From Sphingobacteriaceae bacterium (GTDB lineage: Bacteria; Bacteroidota; Bacteroidia; B-17B0; Aurantibacillaceae), in the NCBI GenBank assembly GCA_046345155.1, contig JBKDKI010000003.1:2026-66025 (forward strand): a DNA stretch of 64,000 nucleotides, in the 5' to 3' direction. A program made the translations under genes and the position numbers. The stretch's first letter is position 1, and every line of letters begins with the position of its first letter. Below the pieces are notes generated by a model. That model ran no database searches and had not been told where the DNA came from. It was given only the letters and a program-made list of their open reading frames with translations. This document shows positions 1 to 31,670 of the stretch, piece by piece.

Positions 1-331
1 AGCAACCGCAAACTCATATCCTACTTTTGTAAACTCAAATTTGTGTTGTACAAAATTTGACCTTTATAGAATTTTGATAAATGTATATTTGTGTTTAGAA
101 TTTATACCACGCCACCTGTGGAAACCTGCAGTTTTTGTAACCTATTATTTTTTATATACTTCATATAGAGGAATGTCTATAGATGGTTTTTTACATGTTT
201 AATTTCATTTAATGTTAATATAACATGTAGCCTTATTAAAATTTCTTACATTCGTTTATACAATTATAAGAATGAATTCTTACTAAAAAAGAAACATTAC
301 AGCCCCTCTGCTAATTTTATTAAATAAAGGA

Positions 332-973
332 ATGAAAACTAAAATTGAAATTATTGTAGCCGACGATCAACCAATTTTTAGAAAAGCTATGGTGGCTTAC
401 CTAAATACGTTTGATCACATTGAAGTAATTGCAGATGTATCAAACGGAAAAGAGTTGATCAACCTACTTAAAAAACAATTGCCGGATATTATTATTCTTG
501 ATTTAAAAATGCCGGTAATGGATGGTTGGCAAGCTTTTGATATTTTAAAACAGCGATTTCCTATTATAAAAGTGATTGCATTTAGTAATTCGGATAGTGA
601 TGAAGTTGTATTCGAACTATTTGATAAAGGGATTAGTAGTTTTATTTCAAAGCACGATAAACCCGAAACAATTGATAAAACAATACGTGAGGTGTATTTG
701 AATGGCTTTTATATGGATGAAATTAGATGGAAAAAAAGAGAAGAATATACGCTGATTACGAAGATAAAGGATAGTTTGTTCTCTGAAAGAGAAACTCAAA
801 TATTAAAAGAAGTTTGTAATGGTTCGTCAAATAAAAAAATAGCGCAGAAACTTTATATAAGCGCACCTACAGTTAGTTTTCATAAGCAAAATATTTACAG
901 AAAGGCGAATGTTAACAGTGCCATTGGACTGATAACGTTTGCTACCAAAAATAGCCTATTGACCTTGGATTGA
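332..973 (+). CDS. NarL/FixJ-family response regulator (REC + LuxR HTH)
   Basis: REC motifs IIVADDQ, DIIILDLKMPVMDG and K (ISKHD). C-terminal LuxR HTH FSERETQILKEVCNGSSNKKIAQKLYISAPTVSFHKQNIYRK. Confidence 0.95.
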   Translation: MKTKIEIIVADDQPIFRKAMVAYLNTFDHIEVIADVSNGKELINLLKKQLPDIIILDLKMPVMDGWQAFDILKQRFPIIKVIAFSNSDSDEVVFELFDKGISSFISKHDKPETIDKTIREVYLNGFYMDEIRWKKREEYTLITKIKDSLFSERETQILKEVCNGSSNKKIAQKLYISAPTVSFHKQNIYRKANVNSAIGLITFATKNSLLTLD

Positions 974-1001
974 GCACCCCTGTGTGTTCTACTAAAATCA
1001 C

Positions 1002-1097
1002 CTATGCGATTGCATAGATTTTTGCTCAAGTTTTAGGGCAATCTTCTGTTTTGTAAATATTTACGGTATCAGCATATTTTTCTATGCGTTTACATAG
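1002..1097. promoter_or_regulatory. Two CTATG-N6-CATAG inverted-repeat boxes (1002-1017 and 1082-1097); candidate operators upstream of gspE
   Basis: ctatg-cgattg-catag and ctatg-cgttta-catag lie exactly 80 bp apart in the 183-bp intergenic region. Confidence 0.45.
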
Positions 1098-1156
1098 GCT
1101 GGCACCCTGTTTATATTGGGTAAATTAGGGCTAAGTGCGAAAAGCCGCATTTTGTA

Positions 1157-2593
1157 ATGGAACTAAACGCTATAAGTACCGATTTTAAGAACCAGATCAG
1201 CATAGATCAAGCTTGGTATTATAAAGTTGTTCCCTCAAAACTAGAGAATGGAATTTTGCATTTGTATTGCGAAAAAAACAAGCTTACACCAGAGTTAAAA
1301 GTTGAATTGGAGATCATGCTGGGAAGATCTGTTAATTTGATAGCCGTTGAACAATTTCAGGTAGAGCAGTTATTACTTACTTCTTATCCAAGAAATGCGG
1401 ATATCGGTTTAAATTCGGCTAGTACCGAAACATACAGATTGAATGTGAATGATAGCGGTTTTTTAGAAACGCTGGTAAAAGAAGCCAAGAGTCTTAATAG
1501 TTCTGATATTCACATTGAAACGTATGGCGAAAAATGCAGGATTCGTTTTAGAGTAGATGGCGTTTTAATTGACAGACACAAACTTAATAAAGGTGAGTAC
1601 CCAACTTTGATCAATAAAATAAAAATTGCAGCAAGCTGCGACATTGCTGAAAAACGTATGCCTCAGGATGGTCGTATTCGTTTCAAGTTCAATAATTCAA
1701 ATTTGGATATTCGTGTTTCTATTTTGCCTACACTCTACGGTGAAAAGATCGTATTGCGTTTGTTAGGTAGCGATGCCTCACATATACAAATTGAAAAACT
1801 TGGATTTACCAAGGAAGAATTAGAGCGATACGAGTTAGCTGTGAAAAAGCCAAATGGTATTATTTTGATAAGCGGTCCAACAGGTTCCGGAAAAACAACC
1901 ACACTTTACGCAACTCTTAAAGTATTAAATAAGCCAACCAATAATATTGTTACCATTGAAGATCCAATTGAATACACTTTGGATGGAGTAAATCAAGTTC
2001 AATTAAAAGAAGAAATAGGATTAACGTATACAGAAGCGCTGCGCACTTTTTTGCGTCAAGATCCTGACATCATTATGCTTGGCGAGATTCGCGATGCGCA
2101 AACCGCGCAAATGGCTATTCGCGCTGCGCTAACGGGGCATTTAGTTCTTTCAACCATACATACCAATTCGGCTTGGGGGACGGTTAGTCGTTTAGTTGAC
2201 ATGGGGATCCCGCCTTATTTATTATCTAATACATTTAATTTATCTGTTGCACAGCGTTTAGTTAGAATTCTGTGTACTCAATGCAAAAAGCAAATACCCT
2301 TTAATAAAAATGAATTACCATTAAATTACCGTCATCATAACCTGTTAGTTCATTACACGGCTCAAGGCTGCCAACATTGTCATTTTACAGGATTCAAAGG
2401 TCGTAAAGCGATCTATGAAGTAATTCATATTACAAAAGAACTTTCTGAAGAAATAAAAAATAACGCCACTTCAGTTGACGATTACTTAAAGAAAAACAAT
2501 ATTGATAAGCTTTCCGACAATGCACTTAAGCTGTTTAAGGTGGGAGAAACTACGCTTGAGGAAATTTACCCTTACCTTATAAACGATAATTAA
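1157..2593 (+). CDS. gspE: GspE/PulE/PilB-family assembly ATPase
   Basis: SSDIHIE, DIAEKRMPQDGR, Walker A GPTGSGKTT, TIEDPIEY Asp box, RQDPDIIMLGEIRD, TGHLVLSTIH His box, tetracysteine Zn motif CTQC...CQHC. Confidence 0.95.
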   Translation: MELNAISTDFKNQISIDQAWYYKVVPSKLENGILHLYCEKNKLTPELKVELEIMLGRSVNLIAVEQFQVEQLLLTSYPRNADIGLNSASTETYRLNVNDSGFLETLVKEAKSLNSSDIHIETYGEKCRIRFRVDGVLIDRHKLNKGEYPTLINKIKIAASCDIAEKRMPQDGRIRFKFNNSNLDIRVSILPTLYGEKIVLRLLGSDASHIQIEKLGFTKEELERYELAVKKPNGIILISGPTGSGKTTTLYATLKVLNKPTNNIVTIEDPIEYTLDGVNQVQLKEEIGLTYTEALRTFLRQDPDIIMLGEIRDAQTAQMAIRAALTGHLVLSTIHTNSAWGTVSRLVDMGIPPYLLSNTFNLSVAQRLVRILCTQCKKQIPFNKNELPLNYRHHNLLVHYTAQGCQHCHFTGFKGRKAIYEVIHITKELSEEIKNNATSVDDYLKKNNIDKLSDNALKLFKVGETTLEEIYPYLINDN

Positions 2594-2594
2594 C

Positions 2595-4505
2595 ATGATA
2601 TTTAAAAGAATAGTAATCATAATTCTGTTAACAATTAGTTCAGTATTGAACGCACAAGATCGTTTGGATGTTATCGACGAAAAATTGAATCAACTGAGCA
2701 AAGACTATCCAGGAATAAATGAGAAAGTTGAACTTTCAATGAATGGTGCCACCGTTCAAGAATATGTAAGAGCAATAGGGCTCAATAATAATCTAAATGT
2801 TAACGTAGATCCTGGCTTGGATATTAAGCTTACAAATACTTTCAGTAAGGTAACAGCAAAGGAAGTATTCTTGTTCCTCTGCAAGCGTTATGATCTCGAT
2901 ATACAATTTGTTGGCCCTATAATCACTTTTGTAAAGTATGTTCAACCATTAGTTGAAAAAAAGATCCAGCTGAAAAAACTTAAGATCGATTATATGAAAT
3001 CCGCCGATCTTTTGAGCTACGATCTTGCAAACGATACTCTAGGAAATGTAGCAAAGGAGATCACTAAACAAAGTGGAAGGAATATCATTTTTTCACCGGA
3101 TTTAAGTAACAAAACTGTTAGTGGCTTTATGCAAAACGCAAGTTTAAACGCTGCCCTTGAAAAACTAGCATTTGCCAATGATATGAAGGTGAGTAAAACT
3201 GAAGATGATTTTTATGTTTTCGAAAAAAGGCAAGTATTTGCTGATCCAAAAAGTAGTAATACAGCTTCTTCGTTCGGGAACCTTGGAAATGAGGGAAGTA
3301 ACTCAAAGAATGGCAAGAGTATCATTGTAAAGGATGGATTAATAACAATGGATGTAACTAATATACCAATGTCTGAAATTGTGAGTGTAGTTTCAAAAGA
3401 ACTAGGAAAAAATTATTTTCTATTCAACGAACTTAGAGGAAATTCAACCTTAAAAGTTGTTGATGCTCCTTATGATGAATTCTTAAAACTATTGTTTAAT
3501 GGAACAGATATTACATTTAAGCAAGATGGAAGCGTGTATCTATTTGGTGATCGTAATTTGGAAGGATTAAGACAAAGTAAGCTAATTACATTACAAAACA
3601 GAACCATAGAAAAATTACTGGATTTTATTCCAGCTGATTTAAAAAAGGGGATTGAGTTAAAAGTGTTTGAAGATTTAAATGGTGTAATCGTTTCTGGTTC
3701 TCAACCACGAATAAATGAGTTGGAGAATTTTTTACGACAATTAGATGTAGTTGTTCCTATGGTTCATATAGAAGTGATCATTGCTGATGTACGAAAAAGT
3801 AATTCGTTATCAGCGGGAATTTCAATGGGTTTGGGAACTGCGGGTACAGGAACAACCGGAGGTACTCTTCTTCCTGATTATAATGTGAGCTTAAACTCTA
3901 AATCCATTAATAATTTGATCAGCGGGATCAACGGATTTGGTATTGTGAATTTAGGAAATGTTACACCAAATTTTTATTTGAACCTAAAAGCGATGGAGTC
4001 TAATGGAATTCTTAAGCTACGTTCAACTCCACAGATAGCAACTTTAAACGGACATGAAGCAAAATTAAGCGTTGGTCAAACTCAATATTACCTTGAAGTA
4101 AATAATAATCTTGTAACTCAGGCTAACACGCAGCAAAACATTTTGCAAACGCAAAATTGGAAAGCAGTAAACGCAGATCTTTCTGTAACCATAGATCCAC
4201 AGGTATCAGGTGATGAACAAATAACAATGACTATTAATGTAAAGCAATCGAGTTTTACCGAGCGTGTTTCTAATACAGCGCCTCCAGGGACAATTAATAG
4301 AGATTTTTCTTCATTAGTACGTGTAAAAAATGGAGAGATGATCATGTTGGGTGGTTTAGAAGAAAATCAGATGAATAATTCTGGCAGTGGATTGCCGTTA
4401 ATATCGCGCATTCCAATCTTGAAATGGATCTTCGGAAATCGTACTAAATCAAAATCAGAGAATAAATTAACCATATTCATAAAACCTACAGTTATATACA
4501 GCTAA
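2595..4505 (+). CDS. gspD: Secretin (GspD/PilQ family)
   Basis: Signal peptide and N-domains. Secretin core: LKAMESNGILKLRSTPQIATLNGHEAKLSVG, VRVKNGEMIMLGGL, SGLPLISRIPILKWIFG, ENKLTIFIKPTVI. Confidence 0.93.
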   Translation: MIFKRIVIIILLTISSVLNAQDRLDVIDEKLNQLSKDYPGINEKVELSMNGATVQEYVRAIGLNNNLNVNVDPGLDIKLTNTFSKVTAKEVFLFLCKRYDLDIQFVGPIITFVKYVQPLVEKKIQLKKLKIDYMKSADLLSYDLANDTLGNVAKEITKQSGRNIIFSPDLSNKTVSGFMQNASLNAALEKLAFANDMKVSKTEDDFYVFEKRQVFADPKSSNTASSFGNLGNEGSNSKNGKSIIVKDGLITMDVTNIPMSEIVSVVSKELGKNYFLFNELRGNSTLKVVDAPYDEFLKLLFNGTDITFKQDGSVYLFGDRNLEGLRQSKLITLQNRTIEKLLDFIPADLKKGIELKVFEDLNGVIVSGSQPRINELENFLRQLDVVVPMVHIEVIIADVRKSNSLSAGISMGLGTAGTGTTGGTLLPDYNVSLNSKSINNLISGINGFGIVNLGNVTPNFYLNLKAMESNGILKLRSTPQIATLNGHEAKLSVGQTQYYLEVNNNLVTQANTQQNILQTQNWKAVNADLSVTIDPQVSGDEQITMTINVKQSSFTERVSNTAPPGTINRDFSSLVRVKNGEMIMLGGLEENQMNNSGSGLPLISRIPILKWIFGNRTKSKSENKLTIFIKPTVIYS

Positions 4506-5725
4506 TGTTTTTCGATAAGCTTATACCTAAGAAACTACTAATAAAGCAGGAAGTTTGTTCCGTTGAGGCTATATCTGATGAGCTCGCAACTACATATCAC
4601 TACACCGTATTAAAGAGTAAAGGAAGTAAGTTAGAAATTGCGTTTAAAGGAAGTGTAAAGGATTTAGTTGAACTTCCAAAGCAGGTATTGAAAGGGAAGA
4701 TTCCAATCGTATTGGTGATAAACGGAAAAGGCGTAATTATAAAGAAGGTTGATCAGACGGAGCAAGACGATCAAACCATAGAGCAAACCGTTGAACAGAA
4801 TTTACCTGCCATTAACAAAGAGGATTTTTATGTACAGGTTTTTAAGCAACAGAATTCGGCTTTTATTGCACTTTGCAGAAAGGAATTGGTAGATCACTTT
4901 ATTAGTGAATTTAGCATCCATAAGTACGAACTAGCAGGGCTGTTGATAGGTGTACCGGCATTAATTGGATTACAACCTTTATGGGATAGTTTTAATACCA
5001 TCAAAACAAGCTTGTATGATATTGAATTGAGTAATGGTTCTATAGATAAAATAAGTATTGGAGTTGGGGGAGATCATACTTTAAGTATAGATGGTTTGAC
5101 TTTGCATAAGGAAAATGTGCTAGGTTTTGCCGCTGGGTTGAGTTACTTGATGCAGAACAAGGTCGCTGCAAATGTTAACGCTAGTTTGGAGGATGTTTCG
5201 ATTAAACACACAGAGAAAAATAAATTGAAGTTGATAGCTGTAGTGAGTGTGTCTATTGCTTTTGTTGTAGCATTAACTAATGTTATTTTTTACACGGGGT
5301 ATTTTGAGAAAAACAATACATTAGAAACAGAGCTTTCGCTTTATCAAAGTAAATACGACGAAGTAAATAAATTATTGAGCGATTATCAAAGCAAGAAAGA
5401 TCTTATAGAGGATGTTGGGATTTTTAATAAGAATAAAATAAGCGAGTATGCCGATAAGATCGCTGCTTCTATTCCTGAGGAAGTAACACTCACGCAGATG
5501 TATTTCAATCCTCAAAAAGAAGACATTGAAAGTGAGGATAGTTTAGTTTGTTTTGAAGCAAAAAACCTAAGAATAAGTGGCAACTGCAATAAAAGTCTTG
5601 TTATTAATGAATGGCTAAATGTGTTAAAGATGCAAGACTATATAAAGGATGTAAGTTTACTAAGGTTTACGTATAGCAAAGAAGGTGTTTTACCAAATTT
5701 TGAGATTAAAGTTATAACCAAGTGA
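4505..5725 (+). CDS. GspL-like / PilM-PilN fusion alignment protein
   Basis: Large cytoplasmic N-part, a single TM (~aa 241-263), coiled coil, then PilN-like IAASIPEEVTLTQM...LRISG motif. Stop/start overlap with the secretin gene. Confidence 0.7.
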   Translation: MFFDKLIPKKLLIKQEVCSVEAISDELATTYHYTVLKSKGSKLEIAFKGSVKDLVELPKQVLKGKIPIVLVINGKGVIIKKVDQTEQDDQTIEQTVEQNLPAINKEDFYVQVFKQQNSAFIALCRKELVDHFISEFSIHKYELAGLLIGVPALIGLQPLWDSFNTIKTSLYDIELSNGSIDKISIGVGGDHTLSIDGLTLHKENVLGFAAGLSYLMQNKVAANVNASLEDVSIKHTEKNKLKLIAVVSVSIAFVVALTNVIFYTGYFEKNNTLETELSLYQSKYDEVNKLLSDYQSKKDLIEDVGIFNKNKISEYADKIAASIPEEVTLTQMYFNPQKEDIESEDSLVCFEAKNLRISGNCNKSLVINEWLNVLKMQDYIKDVSLLRFTYSKEGVLPNFEIKVITK

Positions 5726-6258
5726 TGTGGACTAAACTGGATTACAATAAGAAATGTTACCTGATGCTCGGAGGAGTAATTCTATTTTTATACTTGGGCT
5801 ATAAGTTCAGTTTTTCGGACACATTTGTTTTAAAAAGTGAGATAAACGAGAAGGAGGAAAAGCTTATATGGTTAAAAGAAAAGGAAAAGGAACTTCCTAC
5901 ACTTAGAGCTAAAATGAATGAGTTTGAAAAGGCCTACACGAAGGGAGATTCTATTTCAGTGCGGGATAAATTAACCTCTTATATTTCAGAGTTTGCAGAT
6001 GAAAATTCGTGTTTAGTAACCGAAATACCGGGAACATCACTGTTCAATAAAAAAAACATTCAAGTACAAACTAACACGTTTACAATTAAAGGAAATTATA
6101 AGGATCTGCTCACTTTACTTCATACACTTGAAACAAAACATAGATACTTGGCCAGGATCATGTCCGCAAAGTTTTATACAATTAAAGATCAGCAGGCCAA
6201 AAAGAAGAATTTGTATTTAACCATCATTACTCAATCATTTGAACATCAAACATTATGA
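5722..6258 (+). CDS. GspM/PilO-like protein
   Basis: N-terminal TM, coiled coil, and FTIKGNYKDLLTLLHTLE, which resembles the PilO G.Y..L..FL..LE motif. Operon position agrees. Confidence 0.65.
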   Translation: MMWTKLDYNKKCYLMLGGVILFLYLGYKFSFSDTFVLKSEINEKEEKLIWLKEKEKELPTLRAKMNEFEKAYTKGDSISVRDKLTSYISEFADENSCLVTEIPGTSLFNKKNIQVQTNTFTIKGNYKDLLTLLHTLETKHRYLARIMSAKFYTIKDQQAKKKNLYLTIITQSFEHQTL

Positions 6259-7205
6259 AGAAGTCAGGAATTCTTAGTTTAGTTGTATTGTTTTTTACTT
6301 TATGTAAAAAGGATTTTATTGTAGAGAACATTGAGGATAAAACCATCACGGTTAATGCACCTGCTAATAATCTTATCACCACAAATAATAAAATCACTTT
6401 TTGGTGGGAAGAGTTAGATGGCGCTGAAAGATATAATATCCAAGTAGTAAAACCATCCTTTGCAAATATCGCTGAAATTATAAGTGATACGAATATTACG
6501 AGTACAAAGTTTAACCTGACGTTACAACCCGGTATTTACCAGTGGCGCATTAAGGCTATAAATGCAGGTGGTAATACAGCTTTTCAAACCTTCAATTTAA
6601 AAGTTGATACCACCAGCAATTTAAGTAGTTTAACAGTAAGCACCATTGATCCACCCGCAAATTGGCTAACTGGAAATAAAAGAGTAAGTTTCTCTTGGAA
6701 TTCGTTAAATGCAGCAGATTCATATCAAATTGTTTTGTTGAACTCAGCAAATGGTACTATTAAAGATACAGCGACTACGCTAACAACATATACATACACA
6801 TTTCCGTTGCAGGGAGCTTATTCGTGGAAAATACGTGCGTTGAACGATTTTAGTATTTCACAATACAATGCAGCGATAACTTTTACTATTGATCAAACAG
6901 CTCCATCGGCACCAATTCCTACATCGCCCTCACATGGAGCAATTGTAACTCCAACAAATAACCTTTTATGGAATAGAATAGGGGCGCCGGATGCCAAGTA
7001 TGATAGCATTTTTGTTGCTACAGATTCTGCATTTACCAATATTATAAGTTATACTAAGTCATACGCCCAAACCATAGCAATTAACGCACTTAATAGTTCG
7101 CCACCCGCAACCGGTAATACCTATTGGTGGAGATTGCGCTCGGTGGATTCGGTAGGAAATAGATCGGTGTTAAGTAATCAGTTAAAATTTAAATTGAATC
7201 CATAA
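6255..7205 (+). CDS. Lipoprotein with tandem fibronectin type III-like domains
   Basis: Lipobox LFFTLC-KKD. Three repeats of the type W..L..A..Y.IQ...Y.WRI.A.N (WEELDGAERYNIQ...YQWRIKAIN; WNSLNAADSYQI...YSWKIRALN; YWWRLRSVD). Confidence 0.75.
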   Translation: MKKSGILSLVVLFFTLCKKDFIVENIEDKTITVNAPANNLITTNNKITFWWEELDGAERYNIQVVKPSFANIAEIISDTNITSTKFNLTLQPGIYQWRIKAINAGGNTAFQTFNLKVDTTSNLSSLTVSTIDPPANWLTGNKRVSFSWNSLNAADSYQIVLLNSANGTIKDTATTLTTYTYTFPLQGAYSWKIRALNDFSISQYNAAITFTIDQTAPSAPIPTSPSHGAIVTPTNNLLWNRIGAPDAKYDSIFVATDSAFTNIISYTKSYAQTIAINALNSSPPATGNTYWWRLRSVDSVGNRSVLSNQLKFKLNP

Positions 7206-7206
7206 A

Positions 7207-7704
7207 ATGTTAAAAGGAAAAAAGGGAATATATATTCTTATACCTCTTAACATCTTTATTTGGAGCTTCTTCGTATATCGTATTTTCTATTACGAATCGG
7301 AAGATACTATTGTAGAGATATCACAAACTCGCGTAAATACAGATAATCTAACTGATACAGCCATATATAAATTAAAGATGAACTATGAAGATCCTTTTTT
7401 GAAGAAAGAAGCTGTTTTACGATCTCATAATTTAATTGGGGAAGTGAGACCAAAACAAGAAGTGAAAAAGACTGAAACAAAGATCAAGCCGAAAGAGGAA
7501 CCAGTAAAGGAAATTCTGGATGTAAAATATCTTGGCCTAGTTAAGAACAACTCTAGTGGATTTGCAACAGCTATTGTAAGTATTAATGGTACTTCCAGGC
7601 TTATCAAGCAAGATGAAGTTGTTGGTGATATGTGTTTTAAGAATTTTACAAACGAGAGTTTAACAATACTAAAGAACAAGGAGAAAATAGTAATTCAGAA
7701 GTAA
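7207..7704 (+). CDS. GspC/PilP-like protein (TM + HR domain)
   Basis: N-terminal TM, Lys/Glu/Pro linker, then YLGLVKN...TAIVSINGTSRLIKQDEVVG, resembling the GspC HR/PilP beta domain. Confidence 0.6.
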   Translation: MLKGKKGIYILIPLNIFIWSFFVYRIFYYESEDTIVEISQTRVNTDNLTDTAIYKLKMNYEDPFLKKEAVLRSHNLIGEVRPKQEVKKTETKIKPKEEPVKEILDVKYLGLVKNNSSGFATAIVSINGTSRLIKQDEVVGDMCFKNFTNESLTILKNKEKIVIQK

Positions 7705-7827
7705 GTAAAGTTGGAATTCTAAATATTTAGTTTTTTTTAGAAGAAAATTAATGTTAATTATTTTAGTCTTTAAAGATTTAAATTTTTTTAGAACTTAAAC
7801 ACCCTTATTAATTATTAACTTTATTGC

Positions 7828-8043
7828 ATGGAACGTAAAGAGATATTGGAGCAGTTGGCAAGTTTGGAGTCGGTTTATGGATTAGGTGCAAGAAAGTACT
7901 TAAATGATTTGAATTTAGGAAAGCAGTTCATTTGTGAATGTTATGAGAGCATTCGCGAGGATCGCGCATCGATGGAAAAACATTTTGGAATAACCTTGGT
8001 AAAAAAAATAGTGACTTATGCAGAAGTGAACTGCGAGGACTAA
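7828..8043 (+). CDS. Small hypothetical protein (71 aa)
   Basis: ATG preceded by an AT-rich Bacteroidota-type initiation region. No recognisable motif. Confidence 0.45.
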   Translation: MERKEILEQLASLESVYGLGARKYLNDLNLGKQFICECYESIREDRASMEKHFGITLVKKIVTYAEVNCED

Positions 8044-8415
8044 AACTGAGTTCGGTTATGTTTGTCGTCATTGGGTTGCAGCTAAAGTTTGGCAGCCTTG
8101 CGTAGTTAGGTTTTCGAAGCATGAACTTTCTTAATCGATAAAAGATACTTTAAAAATATATATGTTTACTAGCGAGGGCAAATAAAAGTCGCAAATCAAT
8201 CGCTGTTCAGGACAAATTTAGTCCAAATTCAACTGCTTAAGTATAGTTGCCGTTACGTAAAAGTTTCTTGACTAGGGTACAACACAGTGATTTATATTTT
8301 AAATCCTAATTCAAATTAATTCATTAAAATGTACGTAATAAATATCTAACCACTTTTCACTCTTTGTGTGCTTGCATTCTAGTTTATAAATTGTTCACAA
8401 AGTAAGCTCAAGGTT

Positions 8416-8446
8416 TTTGGTATGAAAATGAAACTCATTAAATTTG
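8416..8446 (+). promoter_or_regulatory. Bacteroidota sigmaA promoter (-33 TTTG / -7 TAAATTTG)
   Basis: TTTG 8416-8419, 19-nt spacer, TAAATTTG 8439-8446. Confidence 0.6.
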
Positions 8447-8604
8447 TTTATTGAATTCTAGGCTTATCATTCGAGAAGCCACAGTTAGCAGTTATCTTAA
8501 GTCGTAATTATTGATGCACCACTATGAGATGTTCTTCTCGTGCGCGTATTTACAACATTTAATATTTACCACATTTATTATTTATTAATTTAAAACTGTT
8601 TAAC

Positions 8605-8973
8605 ATGTTTAATAGAAAGCGAAAATGTAAAAATCCTGATTGTCGAATAGAATTCGACCCTATAAATCCAAAGGCCGATTGTCATAACAAGTCGTGCAAT
8701 AACCGTATGAACCATTTAATTAGAATGGCCAAAAAACTGGGCATCAAATCTCAGGAGTTAATTTGGAATTATGTTATAATGCGATCATGTTATGATCAGC
8801 GGAGAATAACTCAACACGGTGATTATTTAGAGGAGTTAGGTGTGAATTTTAATGCATTTCCCCCACCTGTGCCATTTAAACCTGGTGATCCACCATCGGT
8901 TTTGGTGGCAGGCGATCTAGGTCTGGTATTGATCAAAGATAAATTATTCAGAATTGTAAAAAAGACAAACTAA
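8605..8973 (+). CDS. Zn-ribbon-containing hypothetical protein
   Basis: CKNPDC...CHNKSC cysteine pairs. The C-terminal half (LEELGVNFNAF...GDLGLVLIKDKLFRIVKK) recalls a widespread Bacteroidota small Zn-ribbon family; this is from memory and not verified. Confidence 0.7.
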   Translation: MFNRKRKCKNPDCRIEFDPINPKADCHNKSCNNRMNHLIRMAKKLGIKSQELIWNYVIMRSCYDQRRITQHGDYLEELGVNFNAFPPPVPFKPGDPPSVLVAGDLGLVLIKDKLFRIVKKTN

Positions 8974-9479
8974 TGGAATTACCTAAAGGAATACAGCCAA
9001 CACGCGTTAATCTTAACGAGTTGGAGAATCACAAGGAAGAACAACCGGGAGCTACCGAGGGTGGTAAAGGTGAAACGGATTACAACGAGCGTTTAAGAGA
9101 GTTATGGAATAAGGACAAAGTATTTGATCACAAAACTAAGGCTAGTTTCAGAGCAGATCAAACAACTAAGGACGCACCCCCACCATCAGAGACGCCGAAT
9201 TATCGCAACGGTAAGTATATTATTCTAACCATCATTTTGATCATTGTGGTTCTAATTATTTACTATGTTATAAAGCGGCAGAGGAAGGTTCAAGAAGCCA
9301 TGAGATCTAAAATGGAATCGGGGGATGAGCCATATAATTACATTAACTCATTAAGGGCTTCAGATTTTGGTCGCAATATTATGAGTGGGGCAGAGGTGTT
9401 TTTTTATCTGTTAATACTATTTGCTATTGTAAACATGATAGTTAAGGTCGCAAAAACATCTAAGGTTGTATTAGAGTAG
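8973..9479 (+). CDS. Hypothetical membrane protein (2 TM)
   Basis: TAATG overlap with the upstream ORF. Hydrophobic runs YIILTIILIIVVLIIYYVI and VFFYLLILFAIVNMIV. Confidence 0.7.
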   Translation: MELPKGIQPTRVNLNELENHKEEQPGATEGGKGETDYNERLRELWNKDKVFDHKTKASFRADQTTKDAPPPSETPNYRNGKYIILTIILIIVVLIIYYVIKRQRKVQEAMRSKMESGDEPYNYINSLRASDFGRNIMSGAEVFFYLLILFAIVNMIVKVAKTSKVVLE

Positions 9480-9499
9480 AATGACATGAAGCATAAAAT

Positions 9500-9540
9500 A
9501 ATTCTGGTGGTCATTTGTAAAATGGCCACCGGAATTTCTA
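9500..9540 (+). terminator. Intrinsic terminator-like hairpin
   Basis: aattctggtggtcattt-gta-aaatggccaccggaatt; the stem pairs with G-U wobbles on the + strand and lies 20 bp after the 9479 stop. Confidence 0.7.
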
Positions 9541-9687
9541 TTGTCTAAACTTTTGGGAGGAAATATTTACAAACTTAATAAAGTGATATTCATTTTGACT
9601 TGTGCAAGGTTATACATGAAGGGTACGTGGCTTTCTTTTTATGCCGTCACAACCTTTCTAAAAGTAATTACTGGTGATATAAATATA

Positions 9688-9858
9688 TAGCTGATGACCT
9701 TAGCTGAAATATTTCGACTATTGCTAAACGCTGCTGAAACTAGCTTAACATTGCTGAAAAGGGATGAGCATTGCTTACAATTGCTGAACAGCGCTGATGC
9801 AGTAAGCAAAGGTAAGCATGCAATTTTGAAATGGCCTGCTGAATATAGCTTAGCCGAT
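9688..9858. repeat. Array of TGCT(G/T)AA-type motifs in strict 10-bp phase
   Basis: GCT cores at 9703, 9723, 9733, 9743, 9753, 9773, 9783 and 9793, all in one register. Inverted copies (TAAGCA) at 9803 and 9813. Further copies at 9690, 9838 and 9848. Confidence 0.8.
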
Positions 9859-9944
9859 GAAAAAGGGATTATTCAACTTAATAATGAATTGTGCTTTAAT
9901 ATAGGTGTAATGAGGCAATTTTAATTTTTGAAGACATCTTAGAG

Positions 9945-10283
9945 TTAACCTTCAATAACGGTTAGCGCAACTGTTAAATCAATGTTTGCTATGCCACCTA
10001 CCAATATGTATTCGCTAGTTGGATCAATGTTTTCACGGTAGTTAAATTGGGTAATGCTTCCCGTTAAAATAACTTCCTTTTTCAGTAAATTTTGGCTTTC
10101 TGGATCTTTGTGTAATTTCTTAAAGTGAAACTGAACTATTGCTGGTTTATTAGGGTCTGGCTCTATGGCTGCTTCAATAATAAAATTAGCAGTTCTTGGA
10201 TTTATGTTAACCGGTATTGCGAGGGTAAATTCCTTGTTTTTCTTTAGTGACAGTTGTTTTCTTTGAAGTATGAATTTTTCCAT
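9945..10283 (-). CDS. Hypothetical protein (112 aa, predicted beta-rich)
   Basis: Clean ORF 30 bp downstream of the XRE gene on the same strand. Alternating hydrophobic pattern. Confidence 0.65.
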   Translation of the reverse strand: MEKFILQRKQLSLKKNKEFTLAIPVNINPRTANFIIEAAIEPDPNKPAIVQFHFKKLHKDPESQNLLKKEVILTGSITQFNYRENIDPTSEYILVGGIANIDLTVALTVIEG

Positions 10284-10313
10284 TTGCTTTAGAAGCTTGT
10301 TTTTGAGAAATTA

Positions 10314-10529
10314 TTATAGATCCATTAATTCTCCAGATGAAACCTTAAGAGCTCTTGCAACTTCATGCACAAAAAATGCGGTAGGTGTAAAAGTACCTGA
10401 CTCTAATCTACAGATACTGTGTTTGGACTTCCCAATAAGCTTACCTAATGCAACCTGGGTCATCTCTTTTTCTTCTCTCACTTTTGTTATTCTTTTGGCC
10501 AGTTTTTTAGTGAAAACATCTTTTTCCAT
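10314..10529 (-). CDS. XRE/Cro-CI family HTH transcriptional regulator
   Basis: LAKRITKVREEKEMTQVALGKLIGKSKHSICRLESGTFTPT is a classic HTH_3 pattern. Confidence 0.92.
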   Translation of the reverse strand: MEKDVFTKKLAKRITKVREEKEMTQVALGKLIGKSKHSICRLESGTFTPTAFFVHEVARALKVSSGELMDL

Positions 10530-10568
10530 GCATCAATATTACTCATTTTAATAAATTGTTCAAAATTG

Positions 10569-10590
10569 AAGTTGACATATATGTCAACTT
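10569..10590. promoter_or_regulatory. Perfect 22-bp palindrome; candidate XRE operator
   Basis: AAGTTGACATATATGTCAACTT equals its own reverse complement. It lies in the 94-bp divergent gap, just upstream of the -7 box TACATTTG (10604-10611). Confidence 0.75.
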
Positions 10591-10623
10591 TCAGATAGAA
10601 TATGTACATTTGTAAGTAAAAGT

Positions 10624-11289
10624 ATGATACGAGTTTCTGAACATAAACTTTACAGCAATAGAAAATTCACAGGCTTCCTACCAGATCCTCATTTTCCGCC
10701 AGACTTGGAATTGGAAATTAATATCACAGATATTGATTTGGGTGATCCGGATCTGGAAATTGATGGACGTGTATGTTTTACTCACTTGTTACCAGGTGAG
10801 CAAAAAGTGAATATAAATTTTGCCATTAATAAGTTAGACCTTATTAATAATTCATTATTCTTTACAATTAATACAGGTGATTTGGTTTGTAGGGTTTTAA
10901 CGGTCCTTAACTTTAAATTACCATCAGGTATAAATCCTCACATTAAGCATAAGCTTATAGGTTTAACTACTCACTCTAGACAAAACCACTCTAGGCAAAT
11001 TCGCTCTAGCTTAAATTGTAAAGATCCCCTTGATTTTGTTCAAAATTTAAGGGCGCTAAACCCTCAAAATTTCCTTCAACTCATTTCACGAGACTTACAT
11101 GCTCTGGAGGCCACGATTGACGGGGGCTCCCAGCAGGTATTTAAAAAGTGGGCAATTGCCGACCAAATCATCCGTTTGGCGGGTTACAGTTTGATCCCCT
11201 CAAAATATGTGGATTGGGCAGTAGAAAGGTACTTTTTAGAATATGCGAAAACAAAAGAACGATTAGGAATTAATGACATAATAATATGA
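10624..11289 (+). CDS. Hypothetical protein (221 aa)
   Basis: Long ORF behind a -7 promoter box, with ATGA overlap to the next gene. No family recognised. Confidence 0.7.
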   Translation: MIRVSEHKLYSNRKFTGFLPDPHFPPDLELEINITDIDLGDPDLEIDGRVCFTHLLPGEQKVNINFAINKLDLINNSLFFTINTGDLVCRVLTVLNFKLPSGINPHIKHKLIGLTTHSRQNHSRQIRSSLNCKDPLDFVQNLRALNPQNFLQLISRDLHALEATIDGGSQQVFKKWAIADQIIRLAGYSLIPSKYVDWAVERYFLEYAKTKERLGINDIII

Positions 11290-11879
11290 GCTGGAAGTTA
11301 TTTAACGAAATATATGAAAGGAAAAGGGAGGAGTTTATAGCCTTCGATACCACCTTGAGCGAGCATGAAGTTGATCTAAAATCCTATCACAGTTTATTTT
11401 CAAAGGCCTTTGAAGCTTCCTATAACAAATTTGTAAGTGGAAATAGGGCGGCAGTAGATGCCTTAAATAACAATTTTGTTATAGATTTTGAATCATGTGA
11501 AACCCTTGAAGACAATTCCGGTTATGTGGTTTTCTGGGTTCAGCCAATAAATCCAACTTCTTATTACACTAAAATCTCACCCAAAGAAATTCTAATTGAA
11601 GGGATTATGTTTGAGGTTCGCTGGTTTCTTGGAAAGCAAATTGTAAGTGGCGTTGAAAATCCAGTATTCAAATACGAAATATGTGGATGGTTTCATCCCA
11701 ATAAGTGGCGTGGCAGAAATCAATTGAATTATTCTCCTGTTGGGAAAACCACTTTCGCTGGTTTTGATCGAATTGTTAGTGAAAAGTATGAACTAAGTGA
11801 TAGAGGCATCACTCGTGCCATGAATCAGGATTTTGATTGTCATTTTTATAGATGCCTCTCCTTCTACTTTATCAAGTAA
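11286..11879 (+). CDS. Hypothetical protein (197 aa)
   Basis: ATGA-coupled to the upstream ORF. Rich in aromatic residues. No family recognised. Confidence 0.7.
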   Translation: MSWKLFNEIYERKREEFIAFDTTLSEHEVDLKSYHSLFSKAFEASYNKFVSGNRAAVDALNNNFVIDFESCETLEDNSGYVVFWVQPINPTSYYTKISPKEILIEGIMFEVRWFLGKQIVSGVENPVFKYEICGWFHPNKWRGRNQLNYSPVGKTTFAGFDRIVSEKYELSDRGITRAMNQDFDCHFYRCLSFYFIK

Positions 11880-11906
11880 GCTAGAAGAATTTACAAGGGA
11901 TTTAAA

Positions 11907-12245
11907 ATGAAAGAAACAAAGTATAATAGCAAAGAAATTGAAGATAAGTATAATCTTATTTCTATTAATGAGCTTATGACTTTGTTGGGTTATACAGATA
12001 AACGATCAGTTAGGAATTGGTGTGAAAAGAAGCGCATACCGATTATAGAACTGGGAAAAAACGAATACGTCAATAGAACGAACATTACGGAGTTGATCCA
12101 AAGCCAGCTACCTATAAAGGGTAGCAGACCACCAGCTGACAGAGATACACCGGGTTCAGGTTCTAATACGGAAGTGAAATATGTTCCTGAAAGCAAAATC
12201 GTAGCCAAATATTTAGCCAAGTATGAGAGAAAGAACAAAACTTAG
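11907..12245 (+). CDS. Excisionase-like (MerR/HTH_17-type) DNA-binding protein
   Basis: LISINELMTLLGYTDKRSVRNWCEKKRIP winged-HTH pattern. Overlaps the integrase start by 23 nt. Confidence 0.7.
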   Translation: MKETKYNSKEIEDKYNLISINELMTLLGYTDKRSVRNWCEKKRIPIIELGKNEYVNRTNITELIQSQLPIKGSRPPADRDTPGSGSNTEVKYVPESKIVAKYLAKYERKNKT

Positions 12246-13545
12246 TTTGCCGAAAAAACAGCGGCCAAAGGGCTTGTTCTTGTATTGTAATGGTTGTAAG
12301 CACTACTATTCCAATGATAAAGAAGGTATTTGTAGATGTGGTAACTTGGTATATAAGGCTCGAATCCATGTGCCCGGTACCAATCATGGTATTAAAATAA
12401 AAGTCTTTGGCACAAAAATCTTTCGGGATGTGCTCAATCAGTTTTACGAATTCAAAGAGAAGCTGGAGTCAAACTGCTATCAGAGCGTACCCATTAAAAG
12501 AAATGAAAATACCCCGATCAGACTAATTGATTGCTTTGCTTATTACATGGGTTATCTCAATAATGTAGATGTTCCAAAGCACAAACAAAAAAACCGTGAT
12601 AAAAAGTATATCGCCAAATACGATTTGCTTTTTGAGCAGTACAAAGATGCACTTGAATTAAACGGAGTAAACTGTGAAATATTAAAGTTCAAAGAGGTGA
12701 ATGATGATATGGTTGGTTTTGTACATGAGTATTTTTTAAAAAACAAAGCTCTTGCCAATAAAACTTACAATAATAATATGGCATTGCTTAGTGCGTTTAC
12801 CTCACATGTGATCAATAAATTTAAGTTAGAGTACCAAAACCCCTTTCTTGGTATTCCTGAAATGATTGTTACACCTAAGGTAAAGGCGATAGGAGAAAGT
12901 GAATTCTCAAAACTGCTAAATTTAATTACTCCGGAAAATGGAATCCAATTAAAAACACTACGCTCACGAAAAAATGTCAAAAAAACCAATCACTATAAGC
13001 CTTGGTTGCGATTTGCTTTTAAACTCGGTTTATATACTGGAGGAAGAAGCGAGGATATTGTAGAGTTAAAATGGTCAAGCATCCGTCTTCAGGAAGATGG
13101 CAAATTTGATACACTTGAAACCATAGACCATAAAATTGACAGTGCGAATAGTCACAGGATAAGTGAAACAGATCGCTTAACAAAATTCTTTGCCATTACA
13201 AAGGAACTAGGTGATCTTTTAATGGAGATGGGTTATGAAAAATATAAAAAGACAGACAAATATATATTAGCTCCTGAGGATGGATTAAAGCGATCGAACG
13301 TTGCCGGAATTATCAGCAGGTCATTCTCACATTATTATGCTCAGTTAAATACCGGAAAAGTTATTACGTTTAGGAATTTGAGAAAAACATTTATGACAAG
13401 TGCATATAAAGAATTTGGTTTAGCTTCAACGGCGCTTACCAATCATAAGAATCCATCAATGACAAATAAACATTATTATGATAAAGAAGTAACGCGAGAT
13501 GATGCGAAAGAAAATTTTTCGGTCTTCAAAAAGAAAATTATTTAA
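12223..13545 (+). CDS. Tyrosine recombinase/integrase
   Basis: SAM-like core (LANKTYNNNMALLSAF) and catalytic R (LYTGGRSEDIVELKW). Box II variant TFRNLRKTF, then LTNHKNPSMTNKHYY (H...Y). Ends 100 bp from the ssrA 3' end. Confidence 0.93.
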   Translation: MRERTKLSLPKKQRPKGLFLYCNGCKHYYSNDKEGICRCGNLVYKARIHVPGTNHGIKIKVFGTKIFRDVLNQFYEFKEKLESNCYQSVPIKRNENTPIRLIDCFAYYMGYLNNVDVPKHKQKNRDKKYIAKYDLLFEQYKDALELNGVNCEILKFKEVNDDMVGFVHEYFLKNKALANKTYNNNMALLSAFTSHVINKFKLEYQNPFLGIPEMIVTPKVKAIGESEFSKLLNLITPENGIQLKTLRSRKNVKKTNHYKPWLRFAFKLGLYTGGRSEDIVELKWSSIRLQEDGKFDTLETIDHKIDSANSHRISETDRLTKFFAITKELGDLLMEMGYEKYKKTDKYILAPEDGLKRSNVAGIISRSFSHYYAQLNTGKVITFRNLRKTFMTSAYKEFGLASTALTNHKNPSMTNKHYYDKEVTRDDAKENFSVFKKKII

Positions 13546-13548
13546 CAA

Positions 13549-13574
13549 ATTTCCGTACTCCATTTCCGTACTCC
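13549..13574. repeat. 13-bp tandem direct repeat ATTTCCGTACTCC x2 (candidate integrase arm sites)
   Basis: Exact copies at 13549-13561 and 13562-13574, between the integrase stop and ssrA. Confidence 0.75.
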
Positions 13575-13603
13575 AAGGCAAAAAATGAAACTCTCAAAAA
13601 TGA

Positions 13604-13638
13604 AAAAACCCCTGATAGCAAGGCTTTCAGGGGTTTTT
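13604..13638. terminator. Inverted repeat downstream of ssrA (terminator and/or att-associated symmetry element)
   Basis: aaaaacccctga-tagcaaggctt-tcaggggttttt, 7 bp from the tmRNA 3' end, with A/T tracts on both sides. Confidence 0.65.
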
Positions 13639-13645
13639 AGTTGAG

Positions 13646-14010
13646 TGGACCCGGAGAGATTCGAACTCTCGTCCAAATAAGGAAAAAATAAGCTTTCTAC
13701 ACGTTTAGTATTAACTTGATTTTCGATCGAAGCCAGGCGTTAATTCATACCAAACTTCAACTTAGTTACTTGTATTGTTTTTGCACGTAACACTTCAAAA
13801 ACAAACTGCACATTTATGATGCATCATCCAAGGCGCGGAGCAGTTTAGCTCCCTGGGATGCAAAGGTTGCTAAATCCTAGATTAAGCAGCCATAGCGTAA
13901 GAATTCTCTTCGCCAAATAAAGTTTTGAAAGTTCAGTTTAAAGAGCTCGTCTTACAACGCTCTACATGCTTACCTATTTGATGCGCTTACTGTCAAAACC
14001 GGTCGGACCC
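13646..14010 (-). ncRNA. ssrA: tmRNA
   Basis: 5' end GGGUCCGACCGGUUUUGACAG. 3' T-arm/acceptor GACGAGAGUUCGAAUCUCUCCGGGUCCA with G3-U70 Ala determinant. Tag ORF 13914-13882 encodes (A)GEENSYAMAA*. Confidence 0.97.
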
Positions 14011-14034
14011 AATTGGAAGTTAGATTTTAGAATT

Positions 14035-14060
14035 ACCCTTCGACTCCGCTCAGGGTGACA
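14035..14060. repeat. Bacteroidota REP-like / Flavo-1-like short element
   Basis: The minus strand reads TGTCACCCTGAGCGGAGTCGAAGGGT, matching from memory the GTCA(C/T)CCTGAGC..GTCGAAGG repeat of Bacteroidota. Confidence 0.6.
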
Positions 14061-14071
14061 TTGAGTTGAAT

Positions 14072-14103
14072 CAAAAGTATTTATACATCCTATTTCCTTC
14101 AAA
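14072..14103 (-). promoter_or_regulatory. ssrA promoter (-33 TTTG / -7 TACTTTTG)
   Basis: Minus-strand TTTG (14103-14100), 20-nt spacer, TACTTTTG (14079-14072). Confidence 0.6.
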
Positions 14104-14178
14104 GAACATAACAAAGGTACAACATTTTAAGGGGATTTGGAGGTTTTTAATTAAATTTAACCATCAATTCATCTGATC

Positions 14179-14700
14179 ATGAAAAACGTTTTATTCCTAT
14201 TAGCACTTGCATTTGGTATTCAATTGCAGGCTCAAACAGTTAAATCAAAAGCACTTAAGCTTAAATACACTACACCGGCCGGATGGGCCGTAAGTGAAGC
14301 CGGCGGAAAAGATTCGTGGGATCAATCCGGAAATGATCTGTGCCCATGCTCTAGTTTGCATTTTACAAAAGATAATAAAGATGGGAAATTGAATGTACTT
14401 GTTTATCCAACTACCGTTAACGGATTAGATTCTGCTAAACGCAACATGGTTGGTAAACAAAAATTTGTAGATGTAGAGAAATATGATAAAACACGCAATA
14501 AGAATTTTTCTTTCGAAAAGCGCCGTTCAAACTTTACGCATATTAAAACAAATGCCAAATCATATGAGGTTATTCGTTACAAGGCTAAAGTTGATGATCA
14601 TTATTACCTGATCTATACATGGCAGGAAAACATGCGCATGATGAGTCCTGATACCGAGAAAGAATTGTTCGAAGTGATCAATAGCCTTGAGCCGCTTTAA
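14179..14700 (+). CDS. Secreted hypothetical protein
   Basis: Signal peptide MKNVLFLLALAFGIQLQA-Q. LKYTTPAGW is reminiscent of PsbP/DcrB-like folds. Confidence 0.8.
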   Translation: MKNVLFLLALAFGIQLQAQTVKSKALKLKYTTPAGWAVSEAGGKDSWDQSGNDLCPCSSLHFTKDNKDGKLNVLVYPTTVNGLDSAKRNMVGKQKFVDVEKYDKTRNKNFSFEKRRSNFTHIKTNAKSYEVIRYKAKVDDHYYLIYTWQENMRMMSPDTEKELFEVINSLEPL

Positions 14701-26569: not shown

Positions 26570-27154
26570 TTATTTTCTGATCATTTTATCTACCTGCCAA
26601 ACTAAAAAGCCACTACCAATTCCTATTAGTGCGCCGGCTAACACATCACTTGGGTAATGCACCCCTAATCGCATACGCGAATAACCAACAAATCCGGCAT
26701 ATAAATACGATGGTACAATTACTTGCCAGCTTTTTGAACTTAAACTCAAAGCAGTAGCTGTTGCAAAGGCAGCAGTTGTGTGTCCGCTTGGAAATGATAA
26801 TGGACCTGCGTGTGTACGTTTAATGATGTCATTCGGATAAGATACAAATGGCCGTTCGCGTCGTATGGTAGATTTCAGCAAAATACTTACGCCATTAGCC
26901 AAGCCTATGGTCAACGCACTTTTATAACCATTAGGCATCATCTCCTGATCTTTTTTGTAATACCCATAACTCCAAATACCAATAACACTTGCCGGCATAG
27001 CAGGATAAACTGAAAATGAAACACCTTCCATGGTTTTGTCCCACACCGGCATATTTGTGGCATTGCAAGCTTTCAAAAAACGCACATCTGCATTTTGTGA
27101 ATGTGTATTTACAGTAATTGTTATGAAAACAAAAACCAATGCGATTCTAATCAT
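26570..27154 (-). CDS. PAP2-family phosphatase
   Basis: K.TIRRERP, SFPSGHTT, SRMRLGVHYPSDV. Confidence 0.93.
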   Translation of the reverse strand: MIRIALVFVFITITVNTHSQNADVRFLKACNATNMPVWDKTMEGVSFSVYPAMPASVIGIWSYGYYKKDQEMMPNGYKSALTIGLANGVSILLKSTIRRERPFVSYPNDIIKRTHAGPLSFPSGHTTAAFATATALSLSSKSWQVIVPSYLYAGFVGYSRMRLGVHYPSDVLAGALIGIGSGFLVWQVDKMIRK

Positions 27155-31620: not shown

Positions 31621-31670
31621 GGGCTTGACTCACTAAGTTACACAAAATTAGCCCCCTGAAAACCGAAAAA

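Follow-up and report, generated by a model that had tools for sequence, protein, structure and literature searches.

What does the 13.6 kb of DNA adjoining the 3' end of a transfer-messenger RNA (tmRNA) gene, ssrA, represent in the genome of a Sphingobacteriaceae bacterium? The stretch analyzed here, referred to as the window, is 64 kb long (contig JBKDKI010000003.1), and the question of a mobile block concerns its left 13.6 kb. An earlier reading of the letters without database searches (the sequence-only reading) had proposed that this whole part is one mobile unit delivering a surface or secretion machine. Empty sites, a step in sequencing depth, oligonucleotide composition and a near-identical copy of the block in a host with core genes at ~81% identity support the proposal of a mobile unit, and we consider it likely that a site-specific integrative island, at least 13.8 kb long, occupies the ssrA 3' end, with window 1-13644 as its right-hand part. 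The island is larger than had been proposed, with its left end and attL lying outside the window. The element is of a conventional kind, an integrase-driven genomic island at ssrA; its integrase family is little known, and its cargo operon is incomplete.

Loci and contigs fetched for comparison are given L-numbers and metagenome sequencing runs X-numbers; L109 is a locus of the isolate Aurantibacillus circumpalustris. The tmRNA was called with ARAGORN and Rfam, protein families were assigned with Pfam, PHROG, PADLOC and NCBIfam, and folds were predicted with AlphaFold 2 (AF2) and compared using Foldseek. Depth was obtained by placing on the window the Logan contigs of four runs, which are built from 31-nt words, with a second pass at an 80% threshold. 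The features at and next to the target are as follows:

13645..14010, minus strand: tmRNA gene (ssrA) with tag GEENSYAMAA, the integration target (ARAGORN; Rfam full length, 114.8 bits).
13645..13670: 26-bp att core GTGGACCCGGAGAGATTCGAACTCTC, the last 26 nt of the tmRNA (T arm and 3' acceptor strand), matched exactly by a contig of run X22.
13604..13638, minus strand: predicted island-borne intrinsic terminator for ssrA (inverted repeat I19; RNA fold -25 kcal/mol, z -4.0), kept in relatives.
13549..13574, plus strand: two perfect tandem 13-nt arm-type repeats ATTTCCGTACTCC, a putative P arm; L104, L105 and L107 hold an equivalent pair of other sequence.
12223..13545, plus strand: tyrosine integrase (int), 440 aa, of a divergent, small family whose N-terminal domain bears a Cys cluster, ending 99 nt from the tmRNA 3' end.
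11907..12245, plus strand: excisionase-like helix-turn-helix (HTH) protein (xis), a candidate recombination directionality factor (HTH_17 E 2e-4, below the Pfam cut-off), overlapping the start of int.

The tmRNA was the sole Rfam match, and ssrA remains full length despite the insertion. Two conspecific contigs, L006 (ENA) and L003 (a metagenome-assembled genome, MAG, at NCBI), are 99.9% identical to the window rightwards of 13641 and part from it at 13644/13645, which is the ssrA 3' end. Left of this point they bear TTGGTGGATCC, with the CCA encoded, followed by a different inverted repeat with a T run on the RNA strand and by a small gene, a flank found nowhere in the 64-kb window. Their ssrA end is native-looking, and the inverted repeat and T run, read by eye, resemble a native terminator. 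Thus, relatives with an empty ssrA site, to which the sequence-only reading had pointed as a comparison, do exist: L003 and L006 are alleles of the empty site or, at the minimum, ones lacking this island, and they place the right island boundary exactly at 13644/13645. An independent contig, L011, continues from int past the core and reaches tmRNA-specific sequence ten bases further on, at 13680. The 173-aa protein encoded to the right of ssrA (gene at 14179) was found on 12 public contigs, most of which end at the tmRNA. No match to the empty-site junction was obtained in a metagenome scan, and a genome scan with the neighboring S41 peptidase returned only two MAG contigs.

Sequencing depth changes at the same boundary. 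Run X1 shows a depth of 12-18 over 1-13644 and of 27-30 to the right, with the step at 13645 (the read-coverage step anticipated by the sequence-only reading), and it holds window 30-50 kb at 100% identity and depth 30. Run X2 presents 1-13649 nearly identical at depth 16-24, except for a local gap at ~183-386, and has a depth of ~0 over window 14.1-20 kb; over window 30-50 kb, its contigs (depth 20-23.5) reach no more than ~81-82% identity. Two further contigs, L009 (JGI) and L010 (Logan), encode an identical integrase protein and are 99.7-99.9% identical to window 10068-13649. Contig L099 (window 2533-10740, 99.89%) and L009 share an overlap of exactly 127 nt at 100%, and both come from one JGI sample (3300061645), so that the two are best taken as assembly-graph neighbors. 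The block in X2 and in this sample is therefore 99.7-99.96% identical to the window, against ~81-82% for host core genes. Near-identity (~99.9%) of a block of at least 13.8 kb in hosts with core genes ~18% apart argues for recent transfer of the whole block, and we infer from these alignments that the block, secretion operon included, moved recently between two species of one lineage. Its residence in the ~81% host is deduced from matching depths and contig identity, and not from a single contig.

The linkage of the secretion operon to the integrase module recurs in the other contigs. All those reaching the operon 3' end run on into the orphan and XRE genes described below, and in L099-L102 (99.85-100% identical to the window) the orphan genes are always accompanied by the 3' end of the operon. 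Among the contigs found, none holds the secretion operon without the orphan and integrase module, or the reverse; the case that the sequence-only reading had named as contrary to its proposal, relatives with the operon in the same position and no integrase, is not represented among them. Contigs also extend 60-625 nt beyond window position 1 in X1, X2, X3 and X5. As for the suggested sliding composition profile, tetranucleotide usage marks off a deviant left part and GC content does not: GC shows no step, while tetranucleotide distance to the right part gives z = 3.7-5.1 for all 4-kb windows within 2-14 kb, with background from ~12 kb, and the secretion operon is as deviant as the integrase module.

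The attachment region resembles that of lambda-type systems. As the sequence-only reading had it, int and the xis-like gene end by the tmRNA 3' end (ARAGORN and open reading frames, ORFs), with arm-like repeats between int and ssrA, two tandem copies ~70 nt from the core. The integrase reaches only 25.5 bits for PF00589, under the gathering cut-off of 27.1, and a PDB sequence search returned box I of lambda Int as its sole match. Residues R275, K304, R387, H408 and Y418 are invariant in 50 aligned members, in which the conserved His at the first position of HxxR is not present; C22 and C37 are also invariant, and C25 nearly so. The AF2 model (predicted local distance difference test, pLDDT, 90.9) has full-length lambda Int as its best Foldseek match (1z1b_A, E 9e-10, 426 columns), and the protein is thus predicted to adopt the lambda-type three-domain fold, including an N-terminal domain of the arm-binding type. 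A word-indexed search yielded 70 relatives, those with a named source all being uncultured Bacteroidota, and an exhaustive HMMER search of 1.84 billion representatives yielded 528 at E<=1e-3 and 178 at 1e-30. The family is small, divergent and previously undescribed.

Homologous integrases occupy more than one target. L105 and L106 (68% identical) lie at the same ssrA locus with the same 173-aa/S41/alanine dehydrogenase (AlaDH) flank; their cargo is a giant ResIII/AAA_34 helicase, and the secretion operon is absent there. L107 (66%) and L108 (59%) are located at tRNA-Ser(GGA), the 3' end of which shares GAGAGATTCGAACTCTCG with the tmRNA, and L104 (75%) presents the repeats, the terminator and 17 nt of the core, followed by other DNA. 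A xis counterpart precedes int at all five homologous loci, with 31-33% identity over ~100 residues in L105-L108 and a 28-residue match only in L104; only xis and int are common to the islands of this integrase family.

These loci also carry other genes. In L104 (6134-16036) the core is followed by an ImmA/IrrE-HTH pair and by a Multi_ubiq / ThiF-DUF6791 / BubE set, which we take to resemble a ubiquitin-like defence system, and a second integrase stands on the left. L105 (3030-9666) and L108 (1803-8475) encode a 1586-1722-aa ResIII/AAA_34/Helicase_C_4 protein with a 497-621-aa partner, together with RadC in L108. In the relative L018 (S41 peptidase 53% identical), a fragment of a recombinase zinc-ribbon gene (Pfam Zn_ribbon_recom; 13576-14691) abuts the tmRNA 3' end, where the contig stops; ssrA may thus serve unrelated recombinases too in this lineage.

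The order of two tandem repeats, terminator hairpin and core is common to the window, L104, L105 and L107, with differing repeat sequence. In L105 a 324-aa gene stands between the int stop codon and the pair; in the window, L104 and L107 the pair comes immediately after that codon. Equivalent pairs behind the integrases of relatives, with varying sequence, indicate that the window repeats are not due to chance, and a conserved layout with changing repeat sequence fits arm-type sites. The arm-repeat pattern is absent from IMG/VR. Island and flank diverge at 13644/45 in L003 and L006 and at 13649/50 in L009 and L010. At base 13650 the empty sites L003 and L006 have T; C stands there in the window, in the attL-type contig described below and in a tmRNA of run X2 whose flank is non-island DNA.

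L009 and L010 leave the window exactly after GTGGA, continuing into GTCTACCGACATTTTTTCGAACTCT..., a tetratricopeptide repeat (TPR) gene and a FabA/ketosynthase (KS)/ketoreductase (KR)/acyl carrier protein (ACP) cluster, a flank with no counterpart in the window. Their junction retains TTCGAACTCT at an altered distance from GTGGA, and could represent a decayed att or a secondary site. These contigs were also considered as attP of a circular form, which was ruled out: no core and no P' arm repeats follow GTGGA. The L009 flank (3974-12932) encodes a FabA/ApeI-like dehydratase, ketosynthase, ketoreductase, ACP, hexapeptide transferase, saccharopine dehydrogenase and fatty-acid desaturase, a cluster that may serve polyene or lipid biosynthesis.

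A second copy of the ssrA 3' end, which the sequence-only reading had expected to the left, was not found in the window with up to 3 mismatches tolerated, and neither was any further arm repeat, 7.7-8.6 kb included. Run X22 holds a 569-nt attL-type contig in which an L006-like inverted repeat is followed by an exact copy of 13645-13670, 64 nt, the repeat pair of 13549-13576 and TTACAGATTTGTTTTTACC...; on its island side, after the repeat pair, it reads TTACAGATTTG..., a sequence that neither the window nor any fetched locus contains. This order is the one expected of attL if attP bears arm repeats on both sides of the 26-bp core. The second arm-repeat copy is also present in X2 (extra depth ~25) and X4. 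With no attL or second arm pair in the window, and with the island side of the X22 contig absent from it, the left end is placed beyond position 1. An X1 contig with a 31-nt match to the tmRNA end was rejected as attL: it has a GC-richer flank with the CCA encoded, continues like a tmRNA body and looks like the tmRNA gene of another species.

Between the secretion operon and xis lie the following features:

10624..11879, plus strand: two orphan ORFs of 221 and 197 aa that overlap and open the xis-int operon, not kept in other islands of the integrase family.
10570..10589: 20-bp perfect palindrome AGTTGACATATATGTCAACT, a presumed operator overlapping the promoter-like site; unique in the window, zero in shuffles.
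10314..10529, minus strand: XRE/Cro-CI-type repressor (HTH_3 8e-8; PHROG transcriptional repressors; NCBIfam RstR-like).
9945..10283, minus strand: 112-aa orphan ORF with no family match.
9694..9924, plus strand: 76-aa ORF with three TTGCTRAA at 30-nt spacing (9721, 9751, 9781), in frame.
8605..9479, plus strand: two orphan ORFs, one of 122 aa and Cys-rich, the other of 168 aa with one transmembrane (TM) segment.
7705..8604, no strand: AT-rich spacer with one 71-aa ORF (7828-8043) and 560 nt free of ORFs.

The XRE gene diverges from the plus-strand operon, and a promoter-like TTGACA-18-TAGAAT stands at 10572-10601 between it and the xis-int operon. The xis-like ORF has a weak PHROG match to 'excisionase and transcriptional regulator', and the orphan ORFs of 7828-11879 have no match in Pfam, PHROG or PADLOC. 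The XRE switch, the orphan ORFs and the secretin/ATPase operon preceded by a LuxR-type gene are all located where the sequence-only reading had described them, and of the phased repeat array it reported the three regularly spaced TTGCTRAA are real, although the motif is only weakly above chance (18 in the whole window against 11.6 expected). A strong terminator-like hairpin (9500-9536) follows the orphan ORFs of 8605-9479. The spacer is collinear at ~95% identity in the L012-type variant of the island, and both the att core and the arm repeat are absent from it; its ORF-free 560 nt (8044-8604) are likewise ~95% conserved in the variant and have no Rfam match. Within the 112-aa ORF region, 9967-10097 (131 nt) shows about double depth in X2 and an alternative left flank CCAATCCCAAAGAATTTT..., indicating a second copy or variant of part of this ORF elsewhere.

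The cargo at the left of the window comprises a regulator and a six-gene operon:

332..973, plus strand: NarL-family response regulator with LuxR/GerE HTH, the presumed operon regulator (Response_reg 2e-22, GerE 3e-17).
1157..2593, plus strand: GspE/PilB-type secretion ATPase (Pfam T2SSE 2.6e-126).
2595..4505, plus strand: secretin with STN, FecR_C-like and N domains (Secretin 1.6e-37, STN, Secretin_N).
4505..5725, plus strand: GspL-like bitopic protein, 406 aa, with an actin-like cytoplasmic domain, TM segment and coiled coil, and a PilN/PilO-like periplasmic domain.
5722..6258, plus strand: small bitopic protein, 178 aa, no family match; a ~177-aa gene takes the same operon position in L109 and L012.
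6255..7205, plus strand: lipoprotein with Ig/Fn3-like repeats (weak Big_13, Y_Y_Y); a 314-316-aa gene takes the same position in L109 and L012.
7207..7704, plus strand: 165-aa bitopic protein, the last gene of the operon, no family match; a 165-aa gene closes the operon in L109 and L012.

The ATPase scores 472 bits for the NCBIfam GspE model (cut-off 630) and 466 bits for PilB, both under the equivalog cut-offs; the secretin scores 142 bits for GspD against a cut-off of 351, with PilQ similar, and its nearest solved structures are GspD and then PilQ. The AF2 model of the 406-aa protein (57 homologues, pLDDT 85.7) has the cytoplasmic domain of GspL as its top Foldseek match (4pht_X, 3e-9), followed by PilM, and its C-terminal part matches PilO/PilN; it is accordingly modeled as a GspL-like inner-membrane partner. 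It has 97 homologue clusters, those with a named source all from Bacteroidota. By position and topology the 178-aa protein would be GspM/PilO-like, and the 165-aa protein would have a PilP/GspC-like role. Exact look-ups of the response regulator and of the ATPase found neither on record, and a metagenome scan with the response regulator returned only L012-type contigs and unrelated regulators. The regulator is ~88% identical in the L012/L020 variant and is absent upstream of the operon in Aurantibacillus.

The module is a partial machine of the T2SS (type II secretion system) or T4P (type IV pilus) kind, made up of the ATPase, the secretin, the GspL-like protein and partners. The claim of a surface or secretion machine thus holds for these components and not for pilins or a platform protein. 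A prepilin motif scan gave zero matches in the 64-kb window, and a looser motif gave zero in L109 (21 kb around the isolate operon) and L021, and non-pilin matches only in L012, L020, L099 and L101. The GspF/T2SSF platform has no match among the operon proteins or the called genes of L012 and L109, and there is no prepilin peptidase in the operon or its flanks, here or in the isolate. The 'so-called T2SS of Bacteroidetes' groups with the type IVa pilus (T4aP) and escapes the models of the study that noted this (Denise et al. 2019, PMC6668835). The operon here is like T2SS and T4aP in combining a GspE/PilB-type ATPase, a secretin, a GspL-like protein (the equivalent of PilM plus PilN) and small bitopic partners, and differs in having no GspF/PilC platform, prepilin-type proteins or prepilin peptidase.

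The six genes are conserved at 37-62% identity across ~95 homologue clusters, and in A. circumpalustris the operon lies far from any integrase or tRNA. A protein with DUF7948 secreted by the type IX secretion system (T9SS) precedes the operon in Aurantibacillus and in the L012-type variant. Large T9SS-cargo proteins (DUF7948/SBBP, NHL/Ig_7, Por_Secre_tail) precede it in L020 (2215-9524), a 95% variant, and in L109 (3089-6259), so that the secretin machine and a T9SS substrate may be functionally connected. With no pilin or platform gene near the operon here or in the isolate, and with the DUF7948 neighbor in two variants, the machine could be pilin-independent. That the six-gene operon is a self-contained pilin-independent secretin machine of a new kind, moving between species on ssrA islands and perhaps exporting a surface structure or DNA, is nevertheless a long shot compared with an ordinary T2SS/T4P fragment. 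Identity to L012/L013/L014 over window 195-8894 is a mosaic, ~85% over 195-1500, 98-99% over 1500-6000 and ~95% over 6000-8500, with an identical secretin protein in the window and the L012-type variant, and it suggests that island variants have recombined within the operon. Another integrase, of 357 aa and unrelated to the first, lies 6.7 kb upstream of the operon in the L012/L020 variant.

In the model that we propose, the lambda-type integrase would grip the tandem arm repeats via its N-terminal domain and recombine a core of at most 26 bp, corresponding to the last 26 nt of the tmRNA. The island would provide ssrA with a new terminator and possibly with the last few nucleotides of the gene. 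The excisionase-like protein and the XRE repressor, the latter on the palindromic operator ahead of orf221-orf197-xis-int, would control excision. The cargo would consist of the response regulator and the six-gene GspE-GspD-GspL-like operon, encoding, for a T2SS/T4P-like machine, the ATPase, the secretin of the outer membrane and the assembly proteins of the inner membrane; since pilins and platform are not encoded here, a machine of the usual kind would have to obtain them from another source. Relaxase, coupling protein and type IV secretion system (T4SS) have no Pfam or PHROG match in 1-13.6 kb, and there are no virion or packaging genes, the only PHROG matches being the repressor, the xis-like protein and the integrase.

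The extent of the element is where other accounts enter. The sequence-only reading had itself raised the option that the T2SS part is chromosomal, with the island ending near 7.7-8.6 kb; the mobile element would then comprise only ~5.9 kb (7.7-13.6 kb: orphans, XRE, xis and int), and the operon would be resident chromosome by ssrA. The wide conservation of the operon and its location in A. circumpalustris would accord with this arrangement, as would the small size of the other islands of the integrase family, which share only xis and int, and the junction-like look of the AT-rich, nearly ORF-free 7.7-8.6 kb. However, that spacer contains no core copy, arm repeat or L006-type flank, the depth of the operon in X1 is reduced as that of the integrase module is, the operon is 99.9% identical in the host with ~81% core genes and equally deviant in tetranucleotide usage, and L105 and L106 share the ssrA flank without such an operon, all of which renders this arrangement unlikely. 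About as improbable is a tandem or accreted composite, in which an older operon island with its own integrase further left was joined by a xis-int element inserted later next to ssrA, the two now co-travelling. The unrelated integrase upstream of the operon in L012/L020, the mosaic identity to that variant, the use of ssrA by several elements in the lineage (the L018 zinc-ribbon fragment, the different islands in L105) and the L104 integrase end, where a 17-nt core gives way to other mobile-looking DNA, would all be compatible with accretion. Nonetheless, between the two parts there is neither an att remnant nor an arm repeat, they are collinear in every spanning contig, and the window left of 195 is unlike the L012 type, so that the second integrase is possibly not here.

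The junction between island and ssrA could also be an assembly chimera through the shared core, the block really residing elsewhere, as in L009/L010. Left and right depths are never equal in the four runs, many contigs break at the tmRNA, and the core is common to several assembly-graph paths; yet the core that the attL-type contig has in common with the window measures only 26 nt, less than a 31-nt Logan word, the independent contig L011 crosses from int to 13680, and two NCBI assemblies, one with a contig of 209 kb, also have integrase homologues at this ssrA locus, bordered by the same flank. We regard a chimera as very improbable. Several observations do weigh against a single ssrA island. 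Comparators for the ssrA-site and island questions are metagenome contigs throughout. The left island end is unseen in the window data, the attribution of the X22 attL-type contig to this island is deduced with no physical link, X1, the population nearest the window, has no second arm-repeat copy, and no excision product turned up. Island and target are not cleanly told apart by base 13650, so the crossover point cannot be fixed. The L009/L010 junction is neither ssrA nor a tRNA gene, raising the question of a secondary site or of a decayed att in a tandem array. In X2 the operon and int parts join in a 131-nt unitig of double depth, so that linkage there rests on the JGI contigs and the window. 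Finally, an operon that is widespread, and away from integrase and tRNA in the isolate, is not intrinsically an island gene set. Even so, an integrative island at ssrA of which window 1-13644 forms the right-hand part is the reading that we favor.

The island has counterparts among known systems. The ssrA gene is reportedly an integration hot spot. Islands and prophages in tRNA and tmRNA genes are catalogued in Islander (PMC4383910), and tRNA and ssrA loci are among typical island sites (review PMC7574455). Likenesses to such islands are a tyrosine integrase adjoining the target, an intact target, an empty-site allele in conspecifics, variable cargo and deviant composition; by way of difference, attL is not in the window, the island here also supplies the terminator of the target RNA, one integrase family uses ssrA or tRNA-Ser(GGA) via a shared T-arm sequence, and the context of L009/L010 is not a tRNA or tmRNA gene. 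The integrase resembles lambda Int in its predicted three-domain fold over 426-436 columns, the tandem arm-type repeats and an Xis-like partner, and differs in its ~15% identity, a PF00589 score below cut-off, the non-conserved first His of HxxR and the C22/C25/C37 cluster. VPI-1, a pathogenicity island of Vibrio, has ssrA as its integration site. It too is an ssrA island that brings a machine of the type IV filament family with its own regulators; VPI-1 encodes a complete pilus including pilin, in contrast with only the ATPase, secretin and GspL-like partners here, and its phylum and integrase are unrelated. The 10K island of Riemerella anatipestifer (PMC6764341) is likewise a Bacteroidota element, which a single integrase inserts into a tRNA gene and which integrates and excises precisely; it differs in its target, tRNA-Arg, and its 53-bp att.

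The right part of the window is ordinary chromosome, encoding BioB/F/A, TamB, ABC-F and MetK. Its 28001-32000 segment is the only other tetranucleotide outlier (z = 3.0) and overlaps most of the 1489-aa TamB gene (27151-31620). A 1252-aa protein with an N-terminal TraB/PrgY/GumN domain is encoded at 41668-45426 amid housekeeping genes.

As a mechanism of gene transfer the island is conventional. It is a concrete example, from uncultured freshwater Bacteroidota, of a site-specific island carrying a secretion- or pilus-type operon from one species to another. Furthermore, its integrase family presents a readable att layout of arm repeats, island-borne terminator and 26-bp core, offering possible tools for a phylum poor in genetic tools, and many Bacteroidota, a cultured isolate among them, have kept the partial secretin/ATPase operon, making its function amenable to testing.

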